From NCBI GenBank assembly GCA_013153965.1, contig JAADDJ010000014.1, positions 1 through 55,805 on the forward strand: a stretch of DNA of 55,805 bases. Direction: 5' to 3'. The stretch comes from Thermotogota bacterium. GTDB lineage: Bacteria; Hydrothermota; Hydrothermia; LBFQ01. The number at the start of each line of letters is the position of its first letter. Position 1 is the stretch's first letter. Below, piece after piece: positions 240 to 44,103 of this stretch. Under the pieces are notes generated by a model, which was not told the origin of the DNA, did no database searches, and was given only the letters and a program-made list of their open reading frames with translations. The position numbers and the translations under genes are program-made.

Positions 240-1193
240 TTATCTCACTATGACCCTGTAGGTACCCTTATCGGTCACGATGAAGAATATGCCGGAGGAA
301 GGCAGGTAGTAGCGCTCCTTGAAGCGAGCCACGAAGCGACCGGTGGCATCGTATATGCTACCCTCATCGGCGATGACCGTACGCCCAACGACCTTGAGAC
401 CACCCATCTCGGCGGGAGCCTCGGCGATCTCCGTGCTGACGGGATACAGGAACAGGATGGCCGTACCGCTGTCGGGAATGTGGGTGGAGGGATTGCCGGC
501 ATAGACGTACTCCAAGAAGTAGTTATTGACCGTATCGGCCCCCTTGCCCTGAATACCTATGGTGGCGTCGTTGTACTCCAGGGCAGAGTTGTACATGAGC
601 TTCACGTGCCCGCTGTCGTAGAGGACTATCTCAAAGTTCATGAGAACGCTGCCACCATAACGGGGAACGTTGTGATACTGTATCACGGCGCAGGCGCCGG
701 GATAACCGTCGGGACAGCTGGTAAAGCTCTGGAAGTATATGTCATCGGCGGCAGCATCGGAGGGGTTCAGGTCATCCCACATCGCGGCGACGAAGGCCCG
801 AGGTCCGCTGTAAAGGGTAGTGGGAAGGGCCGCGTTGCTAAGACCGAAATACACGTAAGGGGTGTCAAACACGATGGCACCGTTGGAGCATATGGAGACC
901 GAGTCGTAGGTCTCACCGTAGAAGTTGAAGGAGAAGCCGAGATAGTAGAGCGTATTGACGCTGGAGCCGGAGCACCAGTCATCGCCCGCGCCCATGGCCG
1001 TTCCCGTGGTGGAGATATCTATGAAGTTGAAGGGCACCGAGTCCCCATCCTGCGTGGAGAGGTAGGTATAACCGTACCCATCAGGCCCGCCCAGAAGCAG
1101 ACGGACGTCCGCGGGCCTCTCAACCTTCTTAACGTTATCAACACCCTTGAGCGGCTCAAAGGTGCTGCTGCTGATTAGAATTATCCCTAACAT
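240..1193 (-). CDS. Secreted/surface protein with T9SS (Por) type-A-like C-terminal sorting domain
   Basis: GGPDGYGY and LGFSFNFYGETYDSVSICSNG (NIDO-like) motifs, with tail IYDATGRFV..LPSSGIFFI..RVIVR. Start moved to ATG 1193, 8 nt after TATAAT. Confidence 0.7.
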   Translation of the reverse strand: MLGIILISSSTFEPLKGVDNVKKVERPADVRLLLGGPDGYGYTYLSTQDGDSVPFNFIDISTTGTAMGAGDDWCSGSSVNTLYYLGFSFNFYGETYDSVSICSNGAIVFDTPYVYFGLSNAALPTTLYSGPRAFVAAMWDDLNPSDAAADDIYFQSFTSCPDGYPGACAVIQYHNVPRYGGSVLMNFEIVLYDSGHVKLMYNSALEYNDATIGIQGKGADTVNNYFLEYVYAGNPSTHIPDSGTAILFLYPVSTEIAEAPAEMGGLKVVGRTVIADEGSIYDATGRFVARFKERYYLPSSGIFFIVTDKGTYRVIVR

Positions 1194-1258
1194 GAGTTTC
1201 AATTATACGGTCGGTTGGGGGAATGTTGGCCAACGGTTGCAAAAGATTGAACGAAATC

Positions 1259-1284
1259 AAAAACCCCCGCCTTTTGGCGGGGGG
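1259..1284 (-). terminator. Rho-independent terminator
   Basis: CCCCCGCC-AAAA-GGCGGGGG followed by TTTTT, downstream of ino1. Confidence 0.8.
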
Positions 1285-1307
1285 AAACTGCAGCCTGACG
1301 TCGGGCC

Positions 1308-2417
1308 TTACTTTTTAGCCTTCTTGCCCTTGTCCTTCACCGAATACTTCTGAATCCACTCCTCAAGGCGGTTGCGGGCCTCCCAGTCGGGTATCTGAAC
1401 GGGAGGCGTCTTCATGAAGTAAGCCGAAGGCTCAACTATGGGGCCGGAGAGGCCGTTATCCTTGGCCAACTTCGCAGCCCGGATGGCGTCTATCATGACG
1501 CCGGCGGAGTTGGGACTGTCCCACACCTCCAGCTTCAGCTCAATGTTGAGAGGAACGTTCCCGAAGGTGGTACCCTCCATGCGGATGTAGGCCCACTTCC
1601 TGTCCTTGAGCCAAGGGATGTAGTCGGAGGGGCCAACGTGAATGTTATCGTCGCCGATGTCGTAGGGTAGGAGCGACCTGACGGCGTTGGTCTTGGAGAT
1701 CTTCTTGGAGTGGAGACGCTCCCTCTCCAGCATGTTCAGGAAGTCGGTATTCCCGCCGAAGTTTATCTGATAGGTGCGCTCCAGCTTCACGCCCCTATCT
1801 ATAAAGAGCTGGACCAAGGTCCTGTGAAGGATGGTGGCTCCAACCTGCGACTTGATGTCGTCCCCTATAACCGGCAGACCGGCATCCTTAAAGCGCTTAC
1901 CCCAGTAGTCGGAAGTGGCTATGAAGACGGGGATACCATTTACGAAGGCGGCTCCCGCCTGCAGAACCTGCTCAACGTACCACTTGGTGGCCTCCTCGCT
2001 ACCCACGGGTAGGAAATTGACCACCACATCCACGCCGAGGTCCTTGAAGATCTTGGCTATGTCGTCCGTAGGACCGGGGGCCTTGACGATAACGTCCTTG
2101 AGGTACTTACCGATGCCGTCGTGGGTCATACCACGATAGACCTTGGCGTTGAGCTTGGGAACGTCGGTGAATTTGTAGGTGTTGTTGGGCGGGGCGAAGA
2201 TGGCCTCGGAGAGGTCCTTGCCGACCTTTCGGGCATCTATATCAACACCGGCCACAAACTCTATATCGCTTATGTGGTAGCCTCCGAAATCAACGTGCAT
2301 GATACCGGGTATGAAATCCCCCGGCTTCGCGTTCCGATAAAAATGCACCCCCTGAACCAACGCGGAAGCGCAGTTGCCAACACCTATTATAGCAACCCGT
2401 ATCTTTTCCTTTGCCAT
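1308..2417 (-). CDS. ino1: myo-inositol-1-phosphate (inositol-3-phosphate) synthase
   Basis: IGVGNCAS Rossmann motif, [28 protein letters not shown]. Confidence 0.95.
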
Positions 2418-2449
2418 AAGCGTGTATTATACTGGTGAGATTCCGCATC

Positions 2450-3625
2450 TCAACGCAAGCGCAAGAGGAACCACATCGTCCAACCGTAGGAGCCGCTCTC
2501 TGCGAAACCCTCCAACCCCAACACGTCCCCGTACGCCACACCACCGGACAGCCGGAACCCCTTGCGGGAGGAGAAAGTTCGGGAGGAGACGAAGTACTCG
2601 TAGAAGTGTATCCCATCGGCGTTGAAGGAGTACATCCTGATCCATCCGAACCTCCCCCTGTACCCGCCCCAGAGACATCCCCAACACACTCCCCCCTCCA
2701 ACCCTCCGATCCGCAGGGTGATCCTCGGTACCTCGTAATACTCCGCCTTCAGAACGTACCCCCTACCCCGAAGGACCAGCGATAGACGCCTCTTCTGGGA
2801 TGAGACGTAGGAGCGGAACAGGTATCCGGCGAAGGGAACCGAGAACCACAGGGCGTAATCCCGGGAGAATGTCCCCTCCGGCCAGAATCCCTCCCCACGG
2901 ACGTACCGGAGACGGAAACCTATCCCGCCGCGGCTGGCGGCCACCCCGAAACCGTATCCCCCCCTCCCCAACGCCGACTCAAGGGACAGGGGACCGACCC
3001 TCACGTATCCCACACCGCCGGCGACCCCGGAGTGGGTTCGGGAGACAAGGAGGCCCCCCTTGGCACCCACGACCCCCCCGATCACACCCACCGTATCCAG
3101 CTTTAGCATCCAACTCCCCACACCCACGAGGAGCGACGGAGGGGCATAGACGTTGTACCTCGGCCCCCATCCCCCCGTGTAGAACCCCCCGTACCCCGCG
3201 AAACCCAGCGGAGATGCCATCACCAGATTACCGGCAGCCACCTTAAGGAAACCCTCGTACCCCACCGTGGCCGCCTTCCTCTTCGCAGAGGCGTACAGGT
3301 ACGCGTAGTAATCCCCGCTCCTTCCCTTGACGCTCAAGGAGGGATAGGTTCCGTACTTGGCGAATAGCCGGTAGTATCGGGAGCCGTCGCCGAAGGTTAT
3401 GAGGTTGCGCAGGGCGTAGAGGAGCGGCAAGGGGAGACCGGAGCGCCTCACGAAGTCCCTCCAATCCCTGTAGGGACGATTCCGCAGGATGACATCTATC
3501 TGCTCGGGGGTGAGGAAGGGCAGGGCCTCAAGGTCCTCACGGCGGCAGGAGTTTATATCCACACTCTGATAGACGTGGCTTTGGAATATCAGGACCTCGG
3601 CCGTGTCGGGGATGAAGGGGAACAT
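2450..3625 (-). CDS. Helix-hairpin-helix (ComEA-like) domain fused to probable outer-membrane beta-barrel
   Basis: VDINSCRREDLEALPFLTPEQIDVILRNRPY is HhH-like. The remainder is Gly/aromatic-rich alternating beta pattern. Confidence 0.6.
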   Translation of the reverse strand: MFPFIPDTAEVLIFQSHVYQSVDINSCRREDLEALPFLTPEQIDVILRNRPYRDWRDFVRRSGLPLPLLYALRNLITFGDGSRYYRLFAKYGTYPSLSVKGRSGDYYAYLYASAKRKAATVGYEGFLKVAAGNLVMASPLGFAGYGGFYTGGWGPRYNVYAPPSLLVGVGSWMLKLDTVGVIGGVVGAKGGLLVSRTHSGVAGGVGYVRVGPLSLESALGRGGYGFGVAASRGGIGFRLRYVRGEGFWPEGTFSRDYALWFSVPFAGYLFRSYVSSQKRRLSLVLRGRGYVLKAEYYEVPRITLRIGGLEGGVCWGCLWGGYRGRFGWIRMYSFNADGIHFYEYFVSSRTFSSRKGFRLSGGVAYGDVLGLEGFAESGSYGWTMWFLLRLR

Positions 3626-3658
3626 CCCCCCATTTTAACCGGGTACGAATAAAAAAAG

Positions 3659-3731
3659 TGGGGCCGGCAGGACTCGAACCTGCAACCCACGGATTATGAG
3701 TCCGCTGCTCTGCCTATTGAGCTACGGCCCC
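3659..3731 (-). tRNA. tRNA with CAT anticodon, probably tRNA-Ile2 (lysidine) rather than Met
   Basis: Cloverleaf GGGGCCG..TAGCTCAATAGGCAGAGCA GCGGA-CTCATAA-TCCGT..GGTTCGAGTCC..CGGCCCC-A. Fully paired 1-72, so not initiator. CCA not encoded. Confidence 0.9.
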
Positions 3732-3770
3732 TTGAGGCGTATATTATAAAGGGGAAAAGTGGCCGGGTGG

Positions 3771-5855: not shown

Positions 5856-6115
5856 CTATTCTACGGCCGCGCTCAGGACGTATCCCACGCCCCCGCCCAC
5901 CAGCGTCCATACGAAGTCCGCCAACTCCGGATGACCCTTCCCCGTGAATCTATCGTACGCCTCCTTACCACCTCCCACGACGACGACAACTCCCAACGAG
6001 ATTTCGGGTTTTCCGGTGGTGGCGTACCCCGCCGTATATACGAAAAACCCCATCCCCAGATGTTGAAGCTTGTCCGGGGATGGGGTCAGAAGCGCCCAGA
6101 GGAGAGACGTCTCAC
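5856..6115 (-). pseudogene. YfiM-like small membrane protein with apparent 1-nt frameshift near 5' end
   Basis: The DKLQH..KEAYD..ADF motif lies in a frame with no canonical start upstream of it. The GTG at 6115, overlapping the upstream TGA, is one base out of frame. Confidence 0.5.
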
Positions 6116-6315
6116 TCCCTCCTGCAGGTGTTTATCCCGAAAGGTAGGTACAGCAGGCAGAAGCCCAGAGCGGCCGTGAGTAGGAGGACTATCCCCAGCA
6201 CCACCAGAACCGTCTGGGCGGCTCCTCCGACCTTGAGGCCGAAGGCCAGCCCCAGCAGCAGCACCCCCAGTATGGCGCGGATGATCCTATCGGTCTTACC
6301 GACGTTGCACCTCAT
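6112..6315 (-). CDS. DUF2892/YgaP-like membrane protein
   Basis: NVGKTDRIIR, two TM helices, GFCLLYLPFGINTC. Adjacent to rhodanese. Confidence 0.9.
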   Translation of the reverse strand: MRCNVGKTDRIIRAILGVLLLGLAFGLKVGGAAQTVLVVLGIVLLLTAALGFCLLYLPFGINTCRRE

Positions 6316-6740
6316 TTGGTGTTATCCCCCTGACGGTTCCTTATGCGGTTCCTATCGCGCTCAAGGTTCCGGGTCCGCTCCCTCTTCCTCTCCGGCTTGA
6401 CCAGCTCGTAGCCGCGGGCCCTCCAAGCCTTTATGCCACCTCTGAGGTTCAGGACGTGCTTGAAGCCCTTGGCCTCCAGTATGCGGGCGGCGTAGGTGCT
6501 CCTGCGCCCGGAGCGGCAATAGACTATGACCGTATCCTTCTCGGGGTCGGCCTTTATCTCGGAGATGCGCTTGGCTATCTCGGTGTGGGGTATGAGGAGG
6601 TCGGTGCCGGGTATATGCCCCATCTCATGCTCCCGGGGAGTGCGCACATCTATGATGATGGCGTTCCCCTTCTTCTCGGTTATGTAGGTGTGCAGCCACT
6701 TGGGCGTTATCCACGTCCAGCTTAAGAAGACCATCAACAT
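6312..6740 (-). CDS. Rhodanese-like domain protein
   Basis: IIDVRTPREHEMGHIPG, VYCRSGRRS, LRGGIKAW. Confidence 0.92.
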   Translation of the reverse strand: MLMVFLSWTWITPKWLHTYITEKKGNAIIIDVRTPREHEMGHIPGTDLLIPHTEIAKRISEIKADPEKDTVIVYCRSGRRSTYAARILEAKGFKHVLNLRGGIKAWRARGYELVKPERKRERTRNLERDRNRIRNRQGDNTK

Positions 6741-6773
6741 AGCACCCGTATTCTAAGGCCGAAGGATGTTATC

Positions 6774-20854: not shown

Positions 20855-20860
20855 CTTACG

Positions 20861-22789: not shown

Positions 22790-23187
22790 ATCTTCAGAAG
22801 GTTGAGGACCGATTCGGCGGCCTCCTCCCCCTTGTTTCCCATCTTCCCTCCGGCACGGTTCAATCCCTGCTCAAGACTTTCAACCGTGAGGACGGCCAGA
22901 CCCACGGGTACCCGATGGGTCGTGGCGTAGGAGAGCAGGGAGCCGATGACGGCCCCCGCGAGGTGCTCCCAGTGGGAGGTCTCCCCGCGGATTATGCACC
23001 CCACCACGACGAAACCCTCATAGTTCCCGGAGGAGTTGAGGATGGCCACCGCTTGGGGTAATTCAAAAGAGCCGGGGACCCATACCGTCTCGTACGGGAC
23101 CCCGGCTTCCCTCAGTTTTCTCTCAGCACCTTCAACGAGCCTCTCCGTTATTACGGAGTTGTAGCGGCTCGCCACCACGCATATCAC
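22771..23187 (-). CDS. ribH: 6,7-dimethyl-8-ribityllumazine synthase
   Basis: VPGSFELP, GCIIRGETSH, RAGGKMGNKG. Confidence 0.95.
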   Translation of the reverse strand: MICVVASRYNSVITERLVEGAERKLREAGVPYETVWVPGSFELPQAVAILNSSGNYEGFVVVGCIIRGETSHWEHLAGAVIGSLLSYATTHRVPVGLAVLTVESLEQGLNRAGGKMGNKGEEAAESVLNLLKIKNRGA

Positions 23188-24782
23188 TTCTGCTGTCCCT
23201 CTCCTTCTCCGTCGTTGCCCTCGCTCCCCTCCGGAAGGAGGACATAGACCTCAACCCTTCTGTCCTTGGCGAGACCCTTGCCCGTAGGCTCAAAGATGGT
23301 ATAGTTGGCCACCTCCTCAAAGCGATCCTCGCTCAGGTCAAACTGTCTGATGAGGTACTCCTTCACGGCCAAGGCCCTCTTCTTGGAGAGGAGCTCGTTG
23401 TAGAAGGCTCCGCCCCTGCGGTCCGCGTGCCCGCGGATGATCACCTTGGCGTAGGGCTCCTTCATCAGGATCTCGCCCACCTTATTCAGCTCCTTCTGAT
23501 ACTTGGGCTTGATTATGGTCTTGTCGGTGTCAAAATACACGATGGTGACCAGCTTGGGCTTGCGGGAGAGCTTCTTGTGGAGCTTGACCTTCAGGACGGC
23601 GTCGGTCATGAGATTCACGCCCACGTCAAGGGGCTGGTAGTTGTCGTCGTCCTTGGAGATGGTCACCAGATAGTTGGAGGCGGGAAGGCTGTCGTTGCGG
23701 TAGGTACCGCTCTGATCCGTCGTACCCTCGGCATTCACCTTACCCACTATCTTCACCTTCGCCCCCTCAATGGGCTCTCCGGACAGGGAATCTACGACTA
23801 TCACCATCAGGGTCCGGGGGCCCAGCTCCTCAACGGCCTGGACGACGGCGGGACCACCGGGACCCATGACCCCGGGAGTGACGGGGCCGTAGATCCTCTC
23901 CGCTATGCGGGCGGGGGAGACGTGGGCGCCCACGAAGAGCTCCCAGTTCCACTCCCACTTCTCGGGATCGTCGGGAGAGAGGTAGTACCTATTGACGTAG
24001 TAGTTCATGGATATATTGGTCCCTACGCTGAGGACCAGACCGCCGTTGAAGAACCTGTAGCGCACCATGGGGGTGGCGAAGAGGTAATCCGCATCAAAGG
24101 ATATGGGTCCGTAATACTTGAGCTCAAAGCCGCTCTCCAGATCGTAATACGTGGTGAATATTCCGAGGCCCACGTAGAGGGGATTCTCGGCGAGGCCACC
24201 CTTCTTCGCATCAACGTTGTAGCCGAATCCGAGGGCGAGGTTAGCCAGAAGTCTGGTGGACCACTGCTCGCTGACGAAGTCGTACCCTCCGGCGACGCCT
24301 ATGCGAGCCCCGAAGAGACCCTCACGCACCTTGAAGGAATCTACGTAGTCGCCCACCTGTATGGGTCCCTTCTGGGTCTCACCCACGGGTATGAGGAGGC
24401 TCAAGAGCCCGGAGACGCCCCAGTTCTTACGGTTGAGGAACTGGTACTTGGCGCCGAGCTCAAAGTCCCTCATACCGCCGAACCAGCGGTCGGGCTGGGT
24501 GGTGTCGTCAAGCTGCCCCTTGTTGAGCCAGTTTATACCCTTGAGGGTGGCGTATATTTCCAAGTTGCGGATGGGAACGGTGTTGATAGATCCCCAACCC
24601 AAAAGGAAATCCTGAATGCCGTAAGGACTGCTCCATATTTTTTCGGCGTATATGGTGGTCTCAAGGTAGTTAAGATAACCACCGCTCACCAGCTTTTCGG
24701 TAGATGCTCTCCAATCAAAAATGTCAAAGTACCCACTTGCCCCCGTATTGGAGAGGTAGCCTATAAGCGCCAACATGGTCAT
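23184..24782 (-). CDS. OmpA-family outer-membrane protein (beta-barrel + carboxypeptidase-regulatory-like domain + OmpA_C)
   Basis: C-terminal IVYFDTDK..GHAD..N..LSKKRA..RRVE. Middle DSLSGEPIEGAKV..TTDQSGTY. Aromatic-rich beta N-domain. Start 24782 or 24776. Confidence 0.85.
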   Translation of the reverse strand: MTMLALIGYLSNTGASGYFDIFDWRASTEKLVSGGYLNYLETTIYAEKIWSSPYGIQDFLLGWGSINTVPIRNLEIYATLKGINWLNKGQLDDTTQPDRWFGGMRDFELGAKYQFLNRKNWGVSGLLSLLIPVGETQKGPIQVGDYVDSFKVREGLFGARIGVAGGYDFVSEQWSTRLLANLALGFGYNVDAKKGGLAENPLYVGLGIFTTYYDLESGFELKYYGPISFDADYLFATPMVRYRFFNGGLVLSVGTNISMNYYVNRYYLSPDDPEKWEWNWELFVGAHVSPARIAERIYGPVTPGVMGPGGPAVVQAVEELGPRTLMVIVVDSLSGEPIEGAKVKIVGKVNAEGTTDQSGTYRNDSLPASNYLVTISKDDDNYQPLDVGVNLMTDAVLKVKLHKKLSRKPKLVTIVYFDTDKTIIKPKYQKELNKVGEILMKEPYAKVIIRGHADRRGGAFYNELLSKKRALAVKEYLIRQFDLSEDRFEEVANYTIFEPTGKGLAKDRRVEVYVLLPEGSEGNDGEGEGQQK

Positions 24783-24785
24783 AAG

Positions 24786-24858
24786 TGCCCCGCGAGGGAC
24801 TCGAACCCCCGACCCGCGGATTAAGAATCCGCTGCTCTGCCTGCTGAGCTAGCGGGGC
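24786..24858 (-). tRNA. tRNA-Lys(CTT)
   Basis: GCCCCGC acceptor stem, anticodon arm GCGGA-TTCTTAA-TCCGC, GGTTCGAGTCC. CCA not encoded. Confidence 0.93.
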
Positions 24859-24871
24859 ATGAAGGTGGATA

Positions 24872-25861: not shown

Positions 25862-26317
25862 CTACTCGGATCCCTCCAAGACCTTCACCTCGGGTATCTT
25901 GCCGTCAAACTTGACCCACTTTCCTCCGCCGGTTATGCGCCACCTCCAGGATACCTCGTAGGTCTTCTTGGTGGGTACGTTTATGGCCCGAGCGTAGTAT
26001 ATCACGAAGACGGTATCACCCTTGCGCTCAACCCTCCATCCGGATGTGTCGGGACGTGCCACGTTGGGTACGTAAGCTATGTTGCCCGTAGCCGCCGCCT
26101 TTATCAGCTTGCTCATGAACTGGGGATCCTTGGCCCGCTTCCCCTCGTACTGGGCCACCACGACCGCCACACCCTTCCCCCCGCGCACGATCTCCTTCTG
26201 GGATTCCGTCAGATTCGCCTTCACCTTCTTTATGGCCGCCTCGTCGGAGAGGGTTCCGCCTCCCCCGCACGAGGTTATCAAGGCCACCGTGAATATTGCG
26301 GTCAAAACTTTACGCAT
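25862..26317 (-). CDS. Lipoprotein of unknown function
   Basis: From ATG 26317 (8 nt after TAAAAT): MRKVLTAIFTVALITS-C lipobox. Confidence 0.75.
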   Translation of the reverse strand: MRKVLTAIFTVALITSCGGGGTLSDEAAIKKVKANLTESQKEIVRGGKGVAVVVAQYEGKRAKDPQFMSKLIKAAATGNIAYVPNVARPDTSGWRVERKGDTVFVIYYARAINVPTKKTYEVSWRWRITGGGKWVKFDGKIPEVKVLEGSE

Positions 26318-26406
26318 AGGTGGAGATTTTAACACCGAAGATGGCGGAAATTGACCCGAGCGGCTCCACTCCCGCGGGGGAGGTTGCGTCCTTAGAATGG
26401 AACTCC

Positions 26407-27858: not shown

Positions 27859-28449
27859 ATGCTTCTGCTCTTGGGATTCTCTCCGAAGGTGCCCGTCAGC
27901 CTCTACGTATATGAGGAGCACTGGGGGGCGACCATCCCCATCGCGAAGGTTGAGGGAAACGAGGGTGTGGTGCTGAAGACCGAGGGAAGCATAACCCACT
28001 ACTGTGAGGTTGAAGTTCCCGACTCCATACTGGACCCCGAGAGGTGGAAGGCTCTGAGGGACAGCTACAGGTTCTTCCAAGGCACGGACCTGCCCACCTA
28101 CCACTTCGTGTATAGGGCGGGCGACTTTGAGAAGCATGTAATCACCTACGGTCCCCCCAACATATCCCCATTCCTCGGCTCCGTCTTCTCCACCCTCACG
28201 CAGGCCGAGTGCAGGCGGGAGGTTGTACCCAAGCGTATAGTCCTCTCTTGGGAGGAGGTGTTCGTCAAGCGCCGCGCCGCACCCATGGGCGAGTACGAGA
28301 GGCTCCTCGGCAAGAGGGAGGTCAAGGGGGAGGACCTCAAGCTGGCTTACTCAATGCTAAAGAGGTTCGGCCACGACTTCTTCACGGGCGTGATCCTGAT
28401 GGACAGCAAGGGTAGGACGTGGCTCGTCAAGGGTGAGGTTAGCCTGTAG
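27859..28449 (+). CDS. Hypothetical (possibly exported) protein
   Basis: Abuts the gcvPB stop, typical codon usage, hydrophobic N-terminus MLLLLG. Confidence 0.65.
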   Translation: MLLLLGFSPKVPVSLYVYEEHWGATIPIAKVEGNEGVVLKTEGSITHYCEVEVPDSILDPERWKALRDSYRFFQGTDLPTYHFVYRAGDFEKHVITYGPPNISPFLGSVFSTLTQAECRREVVPKRIVLSWEEVFVKRRAAPMGEYERLLGKREVKGEDLKLAYSMLKRFGHDFFTGVILMDSKGRTWLVKGEVSL

Positions 28450-28452
28450 CGT

Positions 28453-28872
28453 ATGGGCGTCGTGAGGCGTTTCATAACCCGGAGTCCGGAGGAGACGGAG
28501 GTTTTGGGTCAATTCGTATTCTGCCGATACGCGAGGAGGTACCGGACCTTCCTACTCTTCGGTGAGATGGGGAGTGGCAAGACGACCTTCGTCAGGGGGT
28601 TCGCCGGAGCCGCCGGCTACGGGAACGTCCGCAGCCCCACCTTCACCATGGTTTCGGTCTATCCGACCCCATCGGGGAGGATACACCACGTGGACCTATA
28701 CCGGCTGGAGGCACCGGACGCCCTCTACAGCTTGGGCTTTATGGACATGATCGGACGGGATATAGTGATAGTTGAGTGGGCGGAGAATCTGCCGGAGGAT
28801 GTGGAGGCCGTACGGATAGACCTAAGTGTTAAAGGCGAAGGGGAGAGGGTGATCACCGTTAGCCTCCCTTAA
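28453..28872 (+). CDS. tsaE: tRNA t6A biosynthesis ATPase
   Basis: GEMGSGKTTF, SPTF, HVDLYRL, IVEW. Confidence 0.95.
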   Translation: MGVVRRFITRSPEETEVLGQFVFCRYARRYRTFLLFGEMGSGKTTFVRGFAGAAGYGNVRSPTFTMVSVYPTPSGRIHHVDLYRLEAPDALYSLGFMDMIGRDIVIVEWAENLPEDVEAVRIDLSVKGEGERVITVSLP

Positions 28873-28883
28873 AATATCGCCTT

Positions 28884-29606
28884 ATGCTGTACTTTGTTCC
28901 TTTCTTCCAGTTCGGAACCGTATCGCTGACACACTTCAACCGTTGGGTTGAAAAGGAGAGGAGCAACGATTACGACCTTCCGTACCAGCGCTCCGCGCTG
29001 GGGTTCGGTCTGGGGCTCGGCTATCGTGCGTACATCTTTGATGTGGGCTTTGATGGACGGATGCTCTACTCCTCGTCGGGTGCCACGGACGTACCCCTGA
29101 CGACGGGAGTATCCTTCTCCTACCGCCACACCCTCCTCAACTTTATATTCTCCGTCCCCGTGGGAATATCCTACCCCCTCAGCGAGTCCTTCCGCCTCTA
29201 CGCGGGGGCGAATCTCCTGATGGGGTTCTCCAACCTGTACGTGTATGACTCCCTGCACTACAGCATCTTCGGGAGCAACGTTTGGAGCACGGAGGATGCC
29301 TCCCTATCCTCCGCCTCAACTGGCATGGGTGTGCTCCTCGGGGGCGACATAGCCCTATCCTCAAGCTTGAGCCTGTTTCTGCGGGTGGGGTACGAGGTCC
29401 TCGCCTTCAGCGGCTACAAGGGTAAGGCCACGTACGAGAACTCCGATGGGGACACGGACGAGAAGACCGTGTATTGGGTCTTCAACCCCAACAACAACAA
29501 CATATATCTGGACACGAGTCCTCCCGGGGACGGTGAGGTGTATGCTAAGGAGGATCTCAACGGCTTCAGGTTCTCGCTTGGTTTCAAGGTCCTCCTCGGG
29601 AGGTGA
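28884..29606 (+). CDS. Outer-membrane beta-barrel protein (8-strand type)
   Basis: Amphipathic beta strands ending GFRFSLGFKVLL. Confidence 0.7.
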   Translation: MLYFVPFFQFGTVSLTHFNRWVEKERSNDYDLPYQRSALGFGLGLGYRAYIFDVGFDGRMLYSSSGATDVPLTTGVSFSYRHTLLNFIFSVPVGISYPLSESFRLYAGANLLMGFSNLYVYDSLHYSIFGSNVWSTEDASLSSASTGMGVLLGGDIALSSSLSLFLRVGYEVLAFSGYKGKATYENSDGDTDEKTVYWVFNPNNNNIYLDTSPPGDGEVYAKEDLNGFRFSLGFKVLLGR

Positions 29607-29609
29607 GGC

Positions 29610-30866: not shown

Positions 30867-30889
30867 GCTCCGTCCGTAAAATATCCCCT

Positions 30890-31330
30890 ATGGTCAGATT
30901 GCGATTCGGTTCAATGATTTTCGTGGTCCTCTCGCTGGCCGGGTGCTTCACTCCCCCCTCACCTTTTCCCTACGAGTACGACGTTGAGCTGGTGAGGGTG
31001 TCGGCGGATTCGGCCGACACGGCCATATCCGTGAGTTTGGAGGGTACGTACGTGGAGGCCTACGCCGATACCGGATTTACGATTTTGGTCAGGAGGTCCG
31101 TTGTGAATGTGGCCGGTGAGAGGTACGCCGTCGTTGATTCCTTCTGGCTACCCGAAGGGACGTACTACATCAGGGCTTGGAAGGACGTGGATGGAGATAG
31201 CATGCTGTCGCCCGGAGATATCTACGGCGCCCTATGCGCCGAGGATACGGTGTGCCTTCAGGCTAAACCCTTCTACGCTGATCCTTGGGATAACATAAGG
31301 ATACTGGTGAGCATATACGGAGGGAGGTGA
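30890..31330 (+). CDS. Lipoprotein of unknown function
   Basis: LAG-C lipobox. LPEGTYYIRAWKDVDGD resembles an SdrD-B/Ca-binding motif. Confidence 0.7.
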   Translation: MVRLRFGSMIFVVLSLAGCFTPPSPFPYEYDVELVRVSADSADTAISVSLEGTYVEAYADTGFTILVRRSVVNVAGERYAVVDSFWLPEGTYYIRAWKDVDGDSMLSPGDIYGALCAEDTVCLQAKPFYADPWDNIRILVSIYGGR

Positions 31331-31333
31331 GGT

Positions 31334-32314
31334 ATGCTGACGATTCTGGCCCAGATAGTCGTAAATGCCCCCGCCTATGAGGACTATCGCTGGCCCACGA
31401 GACTATTCTTGGGGACTACGGCCGACGTACTTCCGGACGGGATGATCTGGTTGCACGGCGGGATCGTTCTGAACGACCAATTCGTTGATTATGGAATCTG
31501 GCACGGTGTCTTCAACTTAGGATTGAGCGATCTGGCCGAGGTCAGGGTATCCATGGGGCGACTCCTCAGCGCGCCCTTGGGGAGGTGGTTTCAGGTCAAT
31601 GAGGTAACGACGGCTCTGAAGTTGAAATTTCTGAATGTGGGGCCCGTGTCGGCGGCCGTAGATTTCAAGGCGAACCCCGGCATAAGGAATATCCTGCGCG
31701 ATACGATGCTCGTATTCAACCCCGAGCCCGTTCGCCACATATACCTGCGAATATACCACACGCGGATGGTGGCGATGTCCCTGCCCATCACCTTAAGATT
31801 CGGGCGTGTGGCCATAACGGCCGCCCCCTCCATAACCCGACTGGGGGTGAGGATGGAGCTGGATAGGCTCCCATCCACCGACAACTGTCTGGAGGGGGTC
31901 CTTTGCGACAGTCTCATCGCTTGGCTATCTACCGAGCCCTTCAGGGAGTCTCCCACGGAGAGCCGTCTAACGTTCAAGGGGGGATACTTGGGAGGGGAGT
32001 ACATGTGGCGGGAGAACGCCATCCTCATCGCGGAGTTCAACCTGATGCCGAAGTTCATATACAGGGGGATGCCCCTCTCCGATACCCTGCTGGCTCCGGC
32101 CAAGTTCTATCCCGACAACAGGGCCCCCTCCGATAGGGTCTATCCCCTCCTCTACTCCCTGTGGGGTATCCGGTACGCCCTACTCCGCTCCCTGTCCTTG
32201 GACATAGCCACCGTGATCCCCTACGATTTCACCCTCCCACCCGACAGGAGACTCAACCTCCTCAACGCCACCATATACCTGAACTTCAACCTGCTGTTCC
32301 CCCTGAACGATTAG
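31334..32314 (+). CDS. Probable outer-membrane protein of unknown function
   Basis: TADVLP N-terminal motif, beta-rich body, terminal strand IYLNFNLLF. SD GGAGGTGAGG. Confidence 0.6.
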   Translation: MLTILAQIVVNAPAYEDYRWPTRLFLGTTADVLPDGMIWLHGGIVLNDQFVDYGIWHGVFNLGLSDLAEVRVSMGRLLSAPLGRWFQVNEVTTALKLKFLNVGPVSAAVDFKANPGIRNILRDTMLVFNPEPVRHIYLRIYHTRMVAMSLPITLRFGRVAITAAPSITRLGVRMELDRLPSTDNCLEGVLCDSLIAWLSTEPFRESPTESRLTFKGGYLGGEYMWRENAILIAEFNLMPKFIYRGMPLSDTLLAPAKFYPDNRAPSDRVYPLLYSLWGIRYALLRSLSLDIATVIPYDFTLPPDRRLNLLNATIYLNFNLLFPLND

Positions 32315-32871
32315 GAGCTGCGTTTCTGGAGTGCGTACCGGATGAGGTCCTCCACGTTCCTGTAGCCCTGACTGAGGGCTTCGGAGACCAGCGTTCGGGC
32401 CTGAACGTAGTCTATCCCCAGATTGGTCAGGGCCTTTATGGCCTCGGAGGCGTAGGCCCCGCTCCCTCCCTCCGGTAGGGGAACGTCCTTGAGGGCGAAT
32501 ATCACCATCTCCGCCTTCTTCGTCCCCAGACCTCTGACCCTCTTCAGGGCGGACACGTTCCCCGTGCGAACGGCCGTGGCGAGCTCCTCAAGGGAGAGCT
32601 CCGAGAGGATGCGCAGGGCCATGGAGGGTCCAATCCCCGGGACCTCAAGGAGGGTGCGGAAGACCTCCATCTGCCTCTCGTCCGTGAATCCGTAGAGCTC
32701 AAAACCGGTCTGCTGGTTGAATATGGTATGCACGTGGAAGCGCACCTCCTCCCCCTCCGGGGGTATGCTGTCGGTGGGTACCTTCAGGTAGAAGCTCACC
32801 CCGGAGGATATCTCCAGAATCACACCGTCATCCTTGACCTTAACGACCCTACCCCTCAATCCTGCTATCAT
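32311..32871 (-). CDS. ruvA: Holliday junction branch migration protein RuvA
   Basis: MIAGLRG, LYGF, VPGIGP, GLGTKKAE, ALTNLG. Confidence 0.93.
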   Translation of the reverse strand: MIAGLRGRVVKVKDDGVILEISSGVSFYLKVPTDSIPPEGEEVRFHVHTIFNQQTGFELYGFTDERQMEVFRTLLEVPGIGPSMALRILSELSLEELATAVRTGNVSALKRVRGLGTKKAEMVIFALKDVPLPEGGSGAYASEAIKALTNLGIDYVQARTLVSEALSQGYRNVEDLIRYALQKRSS

Positions 32872-32880
32872 CTCTCCCCC

Positions 32881-33321
32881 CTATTTCAAGATGTAGTGGG
32901 CGGCCGCGAGGGCGTCGGTGATGTGATCCGGCACATCCTCGCGAAGGTCGTAGAGATTGCGGAGGATGTAAGCCACCTGACGCTTGGAGGCCTGACCGTA
33001 GCGGGTTGATGCCAGCTTCAAGCGCGAGGGCGGTATCTCCTCAACATCAACCCCGAGCTCGTGGAGGGTGAGCAGGAGAACTCCCCTCACCGCTCCCAGA
33101 ACTATGGCGACCTTGGGGTTGCGATGGTATATTATCGCCTCCATCACCGCCCTATCGGGTGAGAACTGGCGCACCACCCTAACCGTCTCCTCCTTTATCT
33201 TCAGGAGGCTCTCACCCAACTCCCCCTTCGTCCGTATGACGCCCCACGCCAACGCCCTATCCCTCTCAACCACTATCCACCCCGTCGCGCGGAGTGAAGG
33301 ATCAATTCCCAGAACCCTCAA
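32881..33321 (-). CDS. ruvC: Crossover junction endodeoxyribonuclease RuvC
   Basis: LGIDPS, G.ASKRQV, DALAAA. yebC-ruvC-ruvA synteny. Confidence 0.93.
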   Translation of the reverse strand: MRVLGIDPSLRATGWIVVERDRALAWGVIRTKGELGESLLKIKEETVRVVRQFSPDRAVMEAIIYHRNPKVAIVLGAVRGVLLLTLHELGVDVEEIPPSRLKLASTRYGQASKRQVAYILRNLYDLREDVPDHITDALAAAHYILK

Positions 33322-36556: not shown

Positions 36557-37936
36557 TTAGAAACTCAGGGAGTACTTGAGGGACAGATTCCAGAAGCGGC
36601 GCTCCCCCTCCCGCCTCCGGAGGGCCGAGACCTCACCTCCTTGGAACTTCGCTGCTATCCCCACCCCCGTGCCGTCGGGTCTGAAATCGTAAGAGAGCCC
36701 CACATCAACCCTCTCAACCTCAATCACCGGTATCCACCCCACGCTGTATATATCCATCTCCCTCATGAGACGGTAGTACAGGTTGCTGTCGGCAACGTAC
36801 CTACCCCTGTCCCAGAGGCGAAGACGCAGGTAGAAGTCCCCTCTGCCGCTGTAGTGGGCCTCCATCTCCATGTATCGGTAGAGGGAGTTGTCCTCCGGCT
36901 TGAAGCGGTAGAGGGTGTATATGGCCGAGATCTCGGCCGCCAAGGTTATATTTCCGAGGGTATTCTGCGCCCCGAGAACGTACCTGAGGAGGGTACGGGT
37001 ATCGGACGACTTGCTTCCGTCTATCAGGACGTGGTCCTCCCTACGTCGGCGCAGATAGAGCTCAAACCCCCCGAGGTCCAACTTCCCCCCTACGAGGATA
37101 TCCCTGTAGGCTTTGGAGAGGGGTTTTAGCCGGCCGGTGTATAGGTTGATGGTGCGACTGACGGACAGGGTGAGGGTTATAAGGTCAAATATCTCCGGCA
37201 GGTACTCAAACTTCGTCCTCTCCTCCGTTCCCACCGTTCCCTCACCCAACCCCACGTAGTTGTATCTACCCAAGTCCATGGACGCGAGGGCCCTATGCAC
37301 GAAGAAACCGGTGCGTATCCGTCCCGACACCCTCCCGCTCGCGACGTAGGAGATGTAGCTCTTTATGGGTGTTAGGGGATACTCCTTGCCCGAGTATCCG
37401 ACGCCCAGGCGGTAGGAGATGTCCCCCTTGCCCTCAAGGTAGGGAGCCACCTCGTAGGTTATGAGATTCTCCGAGTAGGAGGGCAGGCTGTAGTGGGCGC
37501 GGGAGTACGAGGACCTGAGACCCACTTCCGTTCCGAAAACGTGAGCCGAAGGTTTGAAGACCACCTTCCCCAACTTCAGGAGAGGGCGGGCCTCCAGGCG
37601 GGCATCCAGCCAAGGTACGGCGTACCGGAGGGTTATGCCGGAGTTGTTTATCAGTCTATCCCTCCCTATCACGCGCAGGTCTCCCCCCAACTTCAGGTTG
37701 CCCCATCCCCTCTTCAGCCCTACCGCGTACTCGCCGGCGGAGGATGAGCGGATGTTGTCGCTGTAGAGGGTCCAACCGCCCCTCTCGTAGTTGAAGGAGA
37801 GCTTCTGGGTGCGCTTGCCTATGGAGGACGACACGTAATCTTGGGCCACCAGATAGAAGGACGGTCTCTGAAACAGCACATCCGTCCAGCCGTAGTTGTC
37901 GTAGAAGTAGTGGGTGAGCTCCAGTACCCCGAACAG
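36557..37936 (-). CDS. Probable outer-membrane beta-barrel protein of unknown function
   Basis: Tyr/Gly-rich beta pattern with terminal strand WNLSLKYSLSF. Reading frame is open up to a CTG 6 nt after TAGAAT (track start GTG 37879). Confidence 0.65.
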   Translation of the reverse strand: MFGVLELTHYFYDNYGWTDVLFQRPSFYLVAQDYVSSSIGKRTQKLSFNYERGGWTLYSDNIRSSSAGEYAVGLKRGWGNLKLGGDLRVIGRDRLINNSGITLRYAVPWLDARLEARPLLKLGKVVFKPSAHVFGTEVGLRSSYSRAHYSLPSYSENLITYEVAPYLEGKGDISYRLGVGYSGKEYPLTPIKSYISYVASGRVSGRIRTGFFVHRALASMDLGRYNYVGLGEGTVGTEERTKFEYLPEIFDLITLTLSVSRTINLYTGRLKPLSKAYRDILVGGKLDLGGFELYLRRRREDHVLIDGSKSSDTRTLLRYVLGAQNTLGNITLAAEISAIYTLYRFKPEDNSLYRYMEMEAHYSGRGDFYLRLRLWDRGRYVADSNLYYRLMREMDIYSVGWIPVIEVERVDVGLSYDFRPDGTGVGIAAKFQGGEVSALRRREGERRFWNLSLKYSLSF

Positions 37937-37985
37937 TCCCCTATTCTATGGGGGTTCCCCCTTCAACGGTATAATCTCCAAACTC

Positions 37986-38687
37986 ATGAGCGCAGTCAAG
38001 GAACGGAAGGCCAAGACCATAACCTTGGAGGACCTCAAGAAGAATCCCAAAGTGGAAGCCTTGATAATCAAAGCCGACAAGAATCTTGAGGCCTTAGGCT
38101 ATACGGAGCACGGAAAGAGGCATGTCTCATGGGTGGCCAAGAACGCGGGCAGGATAATGAGGCGCTTGGGCTTCCCGGAGCGGAGGGCGCAGCTGGCCGA
38201 GATGGCCGGCTACCTGCACGATATAGGGAACGCCGTCAATAGGGTGGGACACGAGCATGTGGGGGCACTCCTTGCGAAGGACATCCTGACGGAGATGGGC
38301 ATGCCCTACGACGAGGTCCTTGAGATAATGGCGGCCATAGGGAACCACCACGAGGAGAGCGGTTATCCGGTGTCGGACGTGGCCGCAGCCCTGATAATAG
38401 CCGACAAGGCCGACGTGCATCGCACGAGGGTACGGCCGCAGAATCGGACGTCCATAGCGCTGGTCAATGACATACACGACCGGGTGAATTACGCCGCGAC
38501 CCTCTCGCGCATAGAGATAGACCCCAAAAACCGCATCATCTCCTACAACATAGAGATTGACATAAACATCGCCCCCGTGTTTGAGTACTTTGAGATATTC
38601 CTCGGAAGGCTCATAATCTCGCGAAAGGCGGCCAAGGTCCTAAACGCCGAGCTTCATCTCTATATAAACGGCGTCAGGTTGGCATGA
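37986..38687 (+). CDS. HD-domain phosphohydrolase
   Basis: GYTEHGKRH, YLHDIGN, IGNHHE, ADKADVHRTRV. Start moved to ATG 37986. Confidence 0.9.
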   Translation: MSAVKERKAKTITLEDLKKNPKVEALIIKADKNLEALGYTEHGKRHVSWVAKNAGRIMRRLGFPERRAQLAEMAGYLHDIGNAVNRVGHEHVGALLAKDILTEMGMPYDEVLEIMAAIGNHHEESGYPVSDVAAALIIADKADVHRTRVRPQNRTSIALVNDIHDRVNYAATLSRIEIDPKNRIISYNIEIDINIAPVFEYFEIFLGRLIISRKAAKVLNAELHLYINGVRLA

Positions 38688-39445: not shown

Positions 39446-39448
39446 AGG

Positions 39449-42220: not shown

Positions 42221-42873
42221 ATCAACTCGGCGGCCAAACTCACAGCGCGCGCCACATCCCGAATCGGATCTATGAAGGATTTGGACGAGGGAACGACCGT
42301 TATGGGGACGAAGGCCACCCTGAATCCCATCCACAGGGCCTTCACCAGAAGCTCCGACTCCATATCGTAGCGGCTCCGCCTCAACCTCACCGCCCGCAGA
42401 ACGTGGGTACCTATCAGACGGAAACCCGACTGGCTGTCCTCAACCCTGCGTCCCACCATGACGGATATGAAGGTGGATGTGATGCGGTTGGATAGCCTCC
42501 GATGGAGGGGCATCCGCCCCATTTCGCTCCTCCTTGAGCCCACGACCATATCGTAGTGGGGAATCATCTTAAGGAAGGCGGGGTAGAACTCGGCCGGATG
42601 TTGGCCATCGGCGTCCGCCGTGAGGACGTAGTCGTACCCCCTGCGGAGGATCTCGGCGAATCCCGTACGAAGGGCCGCCCCCTTTCCCCTGTTCCTCTCG
42701 TGCTTGAGGAGGTTGAAGCCGAAGCGCTCCCTCAACCCTTCCAACCCTCCCGCGCTTGAGCCGTCATCCACCACGAAGATATCCCCACCGCCAAAAAATC
42801 TTAGGTAGTCGCGCAGAACCCCCTCTATCTCGGGAACGCAGTTATAGCACGGCAGCAGAAGGGCGACCCTTAA
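42205..42873 (-). CDS. Glycosyltransferase family 2 (Dol-P-Man synthase-like)
   Basis: RVALLLPCYN, VVDDGS, NRGKGAA, DADGQH, DSQSGFR. Homologous sequence extends 33 codons upstream of the track start. Confidence 0.88.
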   Translation of the reverse strand, partial: LRVALLLPCYNCVPEIEGVLRDYLRFFGGGDIFVVDDGSSAGGLEGLRERFGFNLLKHERNRGKGAALRTGFAEILRRGYDYVLTADADGQHPAEFYPAFLKMIPHYDMVVGSRRSEMGRMPLHRRLSNRITSTFISVMVGRRVEDSQSGFRLIGTHVLRAVRLRRSRYDMESELLVKALWMGFRVAFVPITVVPSSKSFIDPIRDVARAVSLAAELICARA

Positions 42874-43295
42874 GTCCTTTTGGATATCTCCTCCCAGGTG
42901 GTTAGGGTGTGGTAGTATATGTGGTCCCCGTCATGGACCCCTCGGGTGATCTCGGTTATATGAACGTGCTGGGCCTTAAACATCCTAACGGCGTAATCAA
43001 CGGCCTTCTCCGGCAGGGCGTTCTCACCGCAGGTGTATATGTCTATGGCGGCGTATCCCACCTCCGGCCACGTGTGTATGGAGATGTGGGACTCGGCTAT
43101 GACTATGACGCCGCTGACGCCGTTGGGATGGAACCTGTGGAAGGAGACCGACCATATCTGAACGTTGGCCTCCTTCGCGGCCTCTACGAGGATGTCCTGC
43201 ACCTTCTCCACGTTCCCTAAGATCTCGGGGTCGCACCCCGAAGCCTCCACGATGTAGTGCTCCCCGATGGTCGTGTGCTTCAGTTCCTTCTCCAA
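42870..43295 (-). CDS. speD: S-adenosylmethionine decarboxylase proenzyme
   Basis: GVSGVIVIAESHISIHTWPE, DIYTCG. TTG start after AAGGAGGT. The family also includes arginine decarboxylases. Confidence 0.88.
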   Translation of the reverse strand: MEKELKHTTIGEHYIVEASGCDPEILGNVEKVQDILVEAAKEANVQIWSVSFHRFHPNGVSGVIVIAESHISIHTWPEVGYAAIDIYTCGENALPEKAVDYAVRMFKAQHVHITEITRGVHDGDHIYYHTLTTWEEISKRT

Positions 43296-43383
43296 TTCTC
43301 TACCTCCTTTTGTTTTCCCCACCCGCAGAGCGAGTAAGGTACCATCGGGGCGGCCCCCCGGTCGCCCCTCCGGATAAAAAAAG

Positions 43384-43467
43384 TGCCGGGGGCGGGACTT
43401 GAACCCGCACGGGCCGAAGCCCACATGGCCCTCAACCATGCGCGTCTGCCAATTCCGCCACCCCGGC
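43384..43467 (-). tRNA. tRNA-Leu(GAG)
   Basis: GCCGGGG acceptor, GGCGGAATTGGCAGACGC, CATGG-TTGAGGG-CCATG, long variable arm, GGTTCAAGTCC. CCA not encoded. Confidence 0.93.
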
Positions 43468-43503
43468 GGCGCGAAGAAGATATTTTAAGGCTGAAACCTC
43501 CCC

Positions 43504-44103
43504 TCATATGCCCACCAGAGAGTACATCAGGATGTTTATGCCCATCCTGACGGCCTCCTCCCGAATCTCGGGCGGGTCCCCGTAGCGGTCGGTCCAGCCG
43601 TCCGACACGTTTGAGTTCCAAGTGTAGAAGAGGACGAGCCTACCCTTCACGAATATGCCGTAGGCCTTCGGGGGACCGGGATAATGCTCATGCACCTTCG
43701 GAAGCCTCACGTCGTAGAAGATGTGAAATATCGGATGCTCGGGGGGAATCTCCACCAGATCGTAGTCGGGAAAGACCTTCCTTATCTCCCGACGGAAATG
43801 CTCGTCAAGGCCGTAGTCGTCATCTACGTACAGGAAACCCCCGTTCATGAGGTAGCGGCGGAGATTCTCGGCGTCGGCCTTGGAGAAATGTACGTTCCCG
43901 TGTCCCGTCATGAAGAGCATCGGGTACTCATAGACCTCACTTGAGGAGGGACGGACGACGTAGGGGAGCGTGTCAAACACGGGCGACACCCTGCTGTTGA
44001 AGGCCTTGGTTATGTTGGGAAGTATCTCGGGGTCGTTATACCAGTCCCCGCCCCCCTCGTACTGTAGACGGGCCACCTTCAGAAGCGAGAGGAGCAGGAG
44101 CAT
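43504..44103 (-). CDS. DUF4159 domain protein
   Basis: ARLQYEGGGDWY, YPMLFMTGHG, LRRYLMNGGFLYVDD, MGINIL. Confidence 0.85.
   Translation of the reverse strand: MLLLLSLLKVARLQYEGGGDWYNDPEILPNITKAFNSRVSPVFDTLPYVVRPSSSEVYEYPMLFMTGHGNVHFSKADAENLRRYLMNGGFLYVDDDYGLDEHFRREIRKVFPDYDLVEIPPEHPIFHIFYDVRLPKVHEHYPGPPKAYGIFVKGRLVLFYTWNSNVSDGWTDRYGDPPEIREEAVRMGINILMYSLVGI

Follow-up and report, generated by a model that had tools for sequence, protein, structure and literature searches.

Putative, extremely truncated Sec signal peptides in a thermophilic WOR-3 lineage without a detectable signal recognition particle

Exported and outer-membrane proteins encoded on contig JAADDJ010000014.1 of assembly GCA_013153965.1 (55,805 nucleotides; this whole stretch is hereafter called the window) begin with a methionine and a few apolar residues, here called a stub, at the place where homologues from other WOR-3 lineages carry a canonical signal peptide. 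We consider it probable that these stubs are functional, extremely truncated Sec/signal peptidase I (SPase I) signals of a thermophilic lineage in which no signal recognition particle (SRP) was found. Judged from sequence comparison, the finding is a lineage trait and not a product of mis-called starts. Within its metagenome-assembled genome (MAG; G000), which comprises 1.53 Mb in 63 contigs with 58% G+C and a completeness of 90%, the window is contig C29. Genes were predicted with a codon-usage gene caller made for this analysis (1439 genes), and about 96% of the DNA is covered by the stop-to-stop open reading frames (ORFs) of called genes. Since long ORFs end in each of the three stop codons, translation table 11 holds for this genome.

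Alignment of the stubs with canonical signal peptides

The initial annotation had proposed that exported proteins of this lineage carry ultra-short signals without a basic n-region. Comparison of N-terminal lengths with homologues in five families bears this out: canonical signals of 17-30 residues in other WOR-3 lineages correspond to 7-9 residues here, with a common mature start. For the outer-membrane assembly protein BamA (30 loci read), canonical signals of 18-25 residues containing lysine or arginine (K/R) are found in WOR-3 families f12, f15, f20, f24, f25 and f27, while signals of 11-13 mostly uncharged residues are found in f4, f13, f14, f19 and f22, of 9 residues in f5 and of 7-9 residues in G000; the frame read for f21 (MNKLFI...) breaks off shortly after its start. 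SurA is preceded by 17-18 residues in f4 (MRKGILLLLLFGLIFA/QQK, the slash marking the mature start), by MIKILILFFS/Q in f3, by MTWFLALLS/Q in f5 and by (V)MLLMLVA/Q in G000, where a stop codon lies directly ahead of the GTG.

A similar gradation was obtained for the DUF4159 protein, for which 18 of 120 listed homologues were fetched. The number of residues before the conserved IARLKYEGGGDWY declines from 24-30 (MRVKFVVPIYLLFVLSITSFCYAQNFT-) to 13-16 uncharged residues (MTCLLLILTLSGQFQ-), then to 9 (MLFLLFSFQ-) and finally, both in Caldipriscus and in the window, to 8 (MLLLLSLL-). At this constant length the stub reads MLLLLSLL, MLILLALL, MIILISLL or MIFLISLL. Counted up to IARLKY, successive homologues have 27, 15, 13, 9 and 8 residues. 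In the family of the exported protein starting at 31334, the orthologues begin MLTILA/QIVV, MLMAVVS/QVVV and MLISFIS/QVIV, and the glutamine aligns with that of the same-genus paralogues MRKYLWTMLVSLPALLEA/QVVDY (MRKYLWTMLVSLPALLEAQ/VVDY). Rhodanese homologues with 51-56% identity to the window protein have a canonical signal that ends at the aligned site (MRRTGMLIVGLFLALPLWG/MDLTPGKL), and further PspE-like rhodanese homologues carry canonical or lipoprotein signals. Since the stubs correspond to the last residues of canonical signals and share one mature N-terminus with them, they are N-terminally truncated signals.

Nine orthologues of the OmpA-like protein from two genera have an apolar run of 4-7 residues between the methionine and Y-L-S-N-T-G, with the variants MTMLALIGY, MTMLMLVSY, MTTLLILGY, MIILISY and MIAVISY; homologues at the level of the class start with MLYNIALAVAVAYPSAFGPSGYYD behind a Shine-Dalgarno (SD) sequence. 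Homologues of the window's beta-barrel protein start with MLY[LF][YT]P[LVF]FQFGTV (four fetched of five found). Among orthologues with 70-90% identity from two genera, the stub sequence thus varies at constant length and apolar character, which argues for selection on the stubs. N-terminal offsets between orthologues, determined on genome chunks of 80-200 kb, had a median of 0 within the family and order, +6 for genome G020 and +14 for G064, with 1-9 pairs containing a short N-terminus per genome, which are too few to lean on.

Genome-wide extent

The proposal had included a genome-wide look at outer-membrane proteins and at proteins with the C-terminal domain (CTD) of the type IX secretion system (T9SS), and stubs proved to be widespread in both, being carried by BamA, by FadL and OmpA-like proteins and by most of the T9SS cargo. 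To obtain a chance control for short apolar N-termini, we used 6254 pseudo-N-termini starting at internal methionines. Apolar N-termini without charge that lead into [ASG]/Q at residue 6-9 are present in 24 of 1401 genes and in 7 of the 6254 controls, an approximately 15-fold difference, and K/R does not precede the site in any of the 24 genes. A Pfam analysis of 20 of these Q-site genes revealed obligatorily exported families. The Pfam-verified stub-bearing proteins of G000 comprise BamA (MFVLFLA/Q; five POTRA domains and Omp85), SurA (MMLLMLVA/Q), a DsbA-like thioredoxin (MFPLLLA/Q), a c-type cytochrome (MAVFWFLFVSNDD) and FadL (MIAFLLASGF), as well as an OmpA-like protein of 909 amino acids, YfdX and an M28-PDZ peptidase. 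The SprA ORF opens with V-LWVLLN/YEDYF.

T9SS cargo was located with TIGR04183, which marked 34 CTD places. Inspection of their ORFs by eye showed a methionine and a short apolar run without K/R right after an in-frame stop in about 24, MKR-type starts in 6 and unclear starts in 4. With a fixed heuristic that sorts N-termini into the classes mini, canonical and lipoprotein, 17 of 33 T9SS-CTD proteins were mini as compared with 175 of 1337 other genes (odds ratio 7.1, p = 2e-7). A lineage-specific CTD hidden Markov model (HMM) retrieved 48 proteins from G000, 28 of them mini and 6 canonical. The same pipeline, applied to 200 kb of a genome of another WOR-3 family (G053), gave 15 canonical, 1 lipoprotein, 1 mini and 6 other N-termini among 23 CTD proteins, and for G047 it gave 7 canonical and 3 mini among 11. 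The T9SS cargo of G000 that retains canonical MKR signals belongs mostly to one paralogue family (C3:2533, C3:5858 and C13:2543; MKRYALLLGLAASPLWG, MMKRYTVLALLMAVSPLWG and MKRSALLLGLMVSAPLYA).

Over all classified genes of G000 (1370), the heuristic called 192 mini, 81 canonical and 25 lipoprotein N-termini. Relatives were compared on fetched chunks of their genomes. The percentages of mini versus canonical plus lipoprotein calls were 14.5/7.6 in the sister genus, 13.2/7.9 in the same genus and 12.0/10.3 in the sister family f2, where the canonical calls are nearly all lipoproteins. They were 7.9/11.6 and 5.8/12.1 in other families of the class and 5.7-6.8/10.7-19.9 in other classes, where by eye the mini calls are mostly cytoplasmic proteins. 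A background of about 6% mini calls thus exists even where signals are canonical, so that the true number in G000 is probably of the order of 110.

The consensus of the mini N-termini is M-L-L-L-L-L-[LSA], with leucine dominating. Glutamine directly follows the apolar run in 17% as compared with a 5% background, and K/R are depleted. Including the methionine, the run measures 5-13 residues, in many cases 5-8, which is at or below the lower limit of a 7-15-residue h-region. No lipobox is present in the mini proteins described here, and neither the window examples nor the 24 Q-site genes have an arginine ahead of the apolar run as in a twin-arginine (Tat) motif. The lipobox signals of G000 comprise 41 canonical ones with K/R and the cysteine at residue 12-20, and 7 short uncharged ones. 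The latter, with the cysteine at residue 8-11 (e.g., MVLALLVG/C and MLAAMTLAG/C), suggest that the shortening has begun to reach signal peptidase II substrates too.

Start sites in the window

Nine window proteins had been named as examples of a methionine followed by a short apolar run without preceding K/R. Eight of them are in frame, and in none of these does K/R precede the apolar run. The ninth, MFGVLEL at 37936, is out of frame; the true ORF at 37914-38687 (plus strand) encodes an HD-domain protein, which is thus cytoplasmic and outside the feature. The accompanying statement that upstream extensions are excluded accordingly applies to eight of the nine starts, which are pinned by in-frame stops, a tRNA, -10 boxes or SD sequences. 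Export is supported for five of the eight, namely the OmpA-like protein, the barrel, the DUF4159 protein, the rhodanese and the protein at 31334.

The OmpA-like outer-membrane protein (23184..24782, minus strand; Pfam CarboxypepD_reg and OmpA; N-terminus MTMLALIGYLSNTGASGYFD) starts 3 nucleotides (CTT) downstream of tRNA-Lys(CTT) (24786..24858, minus strand). The 22 open codons upstream of its ATG are the tRNA itself and contain no ATG, GTG or TTG. The TATAAT box of the tRNA (24871-24876, minus strand) lies 12 nucleotides from it, and its TAA terminates the glycosyltransferase gene that precedes it. The arrangement of tRNA, 3 nucleotides and ATG is kept in all nine relatives read, from two genera, and 3' processing of the tRNA would leave a nearly leaderless OmpA-like mRNA (tRNA punctuation). 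The beta-barrel protein (PF13505, OMP_b-brl; 28884..29606, plus strand; MLYFVPFF/QFGTVSLTH) has an in-frame stop 7 codons upstream and a TAAAAT -10-like box (28870-28875, plus strand) 8 nucleotides before the ATG. In the DUF4159 protein (43504..44103, minus strand), MLLLLSLL leads directly into the conserved KVARLQYEGGGDWY, with Pfam profile positions 2-202 corresponding to residues 10-196; its ATG abuts the TAG of an M20 peptidase gene with no codon between, and an SD-like sequence is present. The exported protein of 326 amino acids without a Pfam family (31334..32314, plus strand; 6-residue signal MLTILA/QIVVN) is preceded by an SD sequence (GGAGG), and one codon separates the TGA of the upstream gene from its ATG.

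The PspE-like rhodanese (6312..6740, minus strand; Pfam Rhodanese) has an 8-residue signal (MLMVFLSW/TWITPKW), an in-frame stop 4 codons upstream and a TAGAAT -10-like box (6750-6755, minus strand) 9 nucleotides before the ATG; NCBIfam PspE models match it with scores below their cut-offs. It is followed, with an overlap of 10 nucleotides, by a YgaP-like transmembrane-domain protein of 67 amino acids (6112-6740 for the pair, minus strand), which looks like a split form of the E. coli YgaP layout. A cytoplasmic location of the rhodanese, considered because of this neighbor, is overturned by the homologues with canonical signals.

The remaining three in-frame examples are proteins without a Pfam or NCBIfam family. 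The secreted-type protein of 317 amino acids (240..1193, minus strand; N-terminus MLGIILISSSTFEP) has an in-frame stop 3 codons upstream, which is the TAA of a TATAAT -10 box (1202..1207, minus strand) 8 nucleotides before the ATG. The T9SS tail ascribed to it was found neither by Pfam or NCBIfam (E up to 1) nor by TIGR04183 run over the whole genome, and an HMM trained on the genome's own CTDs did not detect it either. Its neighbours in a protein language model (Atlas) are NIDO-like/PF18962 proteins, which is a lead only and leaves the T9SS label unconfirmed. The protein of 391 amino acids (2450..3625, minus strand; MFPFIPDTAEV) has a stop 3 codons upstream, a TAAAAT -10-like box (3632-3637, minus strand) 6 nucleotides before the ATG and, farther upstream, tRNA-Met (3659-3731). 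The protein of 196 amino acids (27859..28449, plus strand; N-terminus MLLLLGFSPKVPV) has an SD-like sequence, and its ATG follows directly on the TAG that ends the GcvP gene; in Atlas its fold is similar to that of small beta proteins of exported or lipoprotein type, again a lead only. As had been noted, two lipoproteins of the window keep canonical signals with a basic n-region and a lipobox (25862..26317, minus strand, MRKVLTAIFTVALITSC; 30890..31330, plus strand, MVRLRFGSMIFVVLSLAGC).

The start signals of the whole genome were analyzed as well. In 415 of 1324 genes, a TAnnAT box is located 6-9 nucleotides ahead of the first ATG, versus about 4 genes per other spacing, and GGAGG spacing peaks at 5-8 nucleotides before the start. 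As both peaks are present, leaderless and SD-led genes coexist. Leaderless mRNAs were rejected as the cause of the stubs, since mini N-termini are divided into 95 leaderless and 81 SD-led genes and canonical ones into 40 and 35. Among RNA runs, none was listed for window positions 23000-32900. The genome is compact, with 94 of 920 same-strand neighbour pairs overlapping by 4 nucleotides (ATGA), and many ORFs lie in one frame, parted by a single stop codon. Gene order is weakly kept even inside the genus: on the contigs of five relatives that carry the OmpA-like orthologue, 2-6 window genes remain together in a few blocks (G004:C5, G007:C3, G003:C54, G006:C6 and G009:C119). Because of this limited synteny, searches were performed protein by protein.

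Absence of SRP and state of the export machinery

The initial annotation had suggested adapted SecA, SecY and LepB. No change was seen in SecY or LepB. Beyond that proposal, the targeting machinery does differ, as Ffh, FtsY and SRP RNA were not found in the class. The Ffh M domain (PF02978) was detected in none of 41 relatives, while all 14 control genomes were positive. Neither the SRP GTPase domain common to Ffh and FtsY (PF00448) nor SRP RNA (RF00169) was found in G000, G007, G017 or G020, the last of which is 100% complete in 3 contigs; both were found in the outgroup G064, a member of another class. Searches of G000 with WOR-3 Ffh and FtsY (tblastn and phmmer) gave nothing better than RadA, and the best FtsY-like match, at 19547-20860 of the window, is RadA itself.

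We surveyed PF00448 across the phylum in 81 genomes that are at least 90% complete. No match was obtained in the 17 genomes of this class or in 8 genomes of families f11, f23, f24 and f27. One weak match was present in f17, f21 and f25, with no M domain in the two genomes tested, G047 (f17) and G053 (f21), and most other WOR-3 families had two matches. Peptide deformylase (PF01327), which served as positive control, was found in 30 of 31 of the surveyed genomes; loss of this enzyme was also considered as an explanation of the stubs and is thereby dismissed.

SRP loss as the cause of the stubs is not supported either. Canonical signals are present on SurA of the SRP-lacking family f4 and on BamA of the SRP-lacking families f24 and f27, and short uncharged BamA signals occur in the SRP-containing families f13, f14, f19 and f22. 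Since SRP absence does not track signal length, we regard it as a second peculiarity, probably a permissive one, and not as the cause. The distribution over families indicates that it is older than the shortening and not sufficient for it.

SecY, LepB and YidC are present in G000. SecA was found in 17 of 21 relatives, with ORFs of 990-1040 amino acids in G001-G020, and the G000 assembly contains only its N-terminal part, at the end of a contig (C43:106951-107244). It had been proposed that a minimal signal code is read by adapted machinery. The short signals are indeed a lineage trait, but the code is not exclusively minimal, as canonical K/R signals occur alongside them (81 canonical and 25 lipoprotein calls among the 1370 genes), and no adaptation was seen in SecY or LepB. 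The SecY plug and five of six pore-ring positions are the same as in E. coli and the sixth is alanine as in Aquifex; the checked prlA hot-spots match E. coli as well, at residue numbers that we take to be those of plug, ring and hot-spots. A prlA-like SecY can thus be rejected. The single LepB has an ordinary box B and catalytic serine and offers no explanation, and the short tail of YidC argues against a long ribosome-binding one. A plant-type glutaminyl cyclase (PF05096) was not found in G000, the search being confined to this type and not extended to M28-type cyclases.

Interpretation of the stubs

The reading that we favour is that the stubs are truncated yet working Sec/SPase I signals. 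A stub would consist of an N-terminal (formyl)methionine and about 5-10 apolar residues dominated by leucine, often ending in a small residue and followed by Q, D or E. It would have arisen from a canonical signal by stepwise loss of the n-region and then of the front of the h-region within one thermophilic WOR-3 class, down to 6-9 residues in the family related to Caldipriscus and in its sister family. Export probably still proceeds via SecA-SecYEG, and the single LepB may cleave where a site of the [ASG]/Q type persists, while some stubs, such as that of DUF4159, may remain uncleaved. As the SRP was not found, targeting would have to be SRP-independent. Without K/R and with a possibly formylated N-terminus, the whole stub may be buried in the lateral gate or the outer leaflet, and growth at high temperature may reduce the activation barrier for which a long signal is otherwise needed.

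Several observations weigh against this reading. A helix of 5-8 residues is too short to span a membrane leaflet. The stub cores are not more hydrophobic, the median of the best 6-residue Kyte-Doolittle score being 2.54 versus 3.17 for canonical signals, so that compensation of shortness by higher hydrophobicity can be discarded. This runs counter to E. coli signal studies from around 1990, which reportedly found that a shorter core needs higher hydrophobicity. Alanine, serine or glycine occupies position -1 in only 77 of the 192 mini N-termini, and the DUF4159 stub runs straight into the fold without any c-region. The ordinary SecY and LepB described above belong here, too. Moreover, the N-terminus classes depend on a heuristic specific to this analysis and on our own gene caller, and with the 6% background roughly a third of the 192 mini calls are probably false.

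As a tentative possibility, we put forward that this thermophilic class uses an undescribed export mode for most of its periplasmic, outer-membrane and T9SS proteins. In SRP-less cells, an uncharged (formyl)methionine-leucine-rich stub of 6-9 residues would replace the tripartite signal, and either engage SecYEG differently, for example by head-first burial without a membrane-spanning hairpin, or be read by an as yet unknown targeting factor.

Rather unlikely is the explanation that the stubs are functionless and that export rests on signals in the mature domains or on an undescribed factor or route replacing the SRP. The absence of the SRP from the class would fit, as would the unremarkable hydrophobicity of the stubs, the weak -1/-3 pattern, the direct transition of the DUF4159 stub into the fold and a SecY without prl-like change. 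Stubs without function would hardly have kept their apolar character and fixed length across genera at 70-90% identity, however, and SRP and signal length are uncoupled in both directions, as seen from SurA of f4 and BamA of the SRP-containing families. In addition, no candidate targeting factor was identified.

It is very improbable that the starts are mis-assigned and that the true ones lie upstream, reached through non-canonical initiation, read-through or frameshift, and supply normal signals. Several genes do adjoin an in-frame upstream ORF across one stop, and in-frame gaps of 0-15 nucleotides are in mild excess (83 versus 89, with about 65 versus 107 expected). Yet what lies upstream is a cytoplasmic enzyme (GcvP, M20 peptidase, TsaE) or a tRNA, for which reason read-through fusion was rejected; all three stop codons terminate long ORFs, a -10 box or SD sequence is located at the right distance from the ATG, and the arrangement is kept in independent MAGs.

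Similarly, there is little to recommend the idea that export has been given up, with the proteins relocalised or their genes decaying as the genome was streamlined. The small size of the genome and its great compactness, shown by ORF cover and ATGA overlaps, would fit, but BamA, SurA, DsbA, cytochrome c, FadL, OmpA and T9SS cargo would be functionless in the cytoplasm, and their ORFs are intact and kept from family to family. Finally, an effect of chance and composition, in which leaderless or tightly coupled genes favour leucine-rich second codons and the examples were picked, is hardly credible, since despite leucine being the second most common second residue genome-wide and the cytoplasmic RibH (MICVVASRYN) being scored as mini, mini N-termini are enriched on CTD proteins, exceed the internal-methionine control at [ASG]/Q sites, are not tied to leaderless starts, align to the ends of canonical signals and fall to the 6% background in genomes with canonical signals.

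Implications

To our knowledge, signal peptides and the SRP are regarded as near-universal. If the truncated signals are functional, a natural lineage in which no SRP was found, and in which BamA, SurA, SprA and most secreted proteins have uncharged leaders of 6-9 residues, sets a new lower limit for Sec signal requirements, and it becomes testable what the n-region, the length of the h-region and the SRP contribute. Signal-peptide predictors would then miss such signals systematically in these bacteria, which are abundant in hot springs and vents, affecting the annotation of secretomes, carbohydrate-active enzymes and surface proteins, and completeness estimates that use ffh and ftsY as universal markers would be biased low. 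A full-text literature search retrieved no publication that treats short signals or the loss of the SRP in WOR-3. The terms signal peptide, signal recognition, ffh and ftsY are absent from the main texts of PMC12542636, PMC12285271 and PMC4791363, whose supplements might list absences of ffh or ftsY, and the first two terms are absent from the main text of PMC11696919. PMC12285271 describes a strain in culture, sy37, that groups with Caldipriscus, Thermoproauctor and Hydrothermae, so that experiments are possible.

Comparison with known systems

The stubs resemble canonical Sec/SPase I signals in being N-terminal and apolar, in occurring on the same protein families and often in having a small residue before the mature N-terminus, and they are homologous to them by descent. 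They differ in lacking a basic n-region, in a total length of 6-12 residues compared with about 18-30, in an h-core of about 5-8 residues and in a c-region that is often reduced or absent.

E. coli strains with prlA (secY) suppressor mutations export proteins with defective or missing signals. Export through SecYEG with a minimal signal or none is thus possible in principle, although SecY of G000 matches that of E. coli at the plug, at five of six pore-ring positions and at the checked prlA hot-spots, and the state described here is natural and proteome-wide, not that of a mutant. Minimal signals engineered in E. coli around 1990 are said to have had short poly-leucine cores or no charge in the n-region. 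They share with the stubs the leucine-rich core and the tolerated loss of positive charge, whereas the cores of G000 are shorter still and without higher hydrophobicity. As in genomes rich in leaderless mRNAs (Deinococcus, actinobacteria), G000 has a -10 box 6-9 nucleotides before the ATG in the 415 genes mentioned above; this layout leaves the stubs unexplained, as SD-led genes carry them too.

Life without Ffh and FtsY has precedents in the laboratory: according to the parts of the two sources considered here, SRP deletion mutants of Streptococcus mutans are viable (PMC8546722) and E. coli suppressor strains survive without SRP (10.1101/2021.01.06.425660). In contrast to these mutants, a natural class is concerned here, with all 17 genomes alike, and YidC has no extended C-terminal tail.

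A further parallel is the Q-rule of Bacteroidetes, by which SPase I substrates have glutamine at +1 that is cyclised to pyroglutamate; in the excerpts of PMC5837995 considered here, the rule is described as not consistent across the Fibrobacteres-Chlorobi-Bacteroidetes (FCB) group. Glutamine follows many stubs as well as canonical signals of this class (..VAQ/L, ..FAQ/Q, ..YAQ/T, where the slash stands after the glutamine). The differences are that no PF05096 cyclase was found in G000 and that WOR-3 is not named in those excerpts. Since glutamine at +1 is common at predicted sites in this WOR-3 class, the Q-rule probably applies outside the Bacteroidetes.

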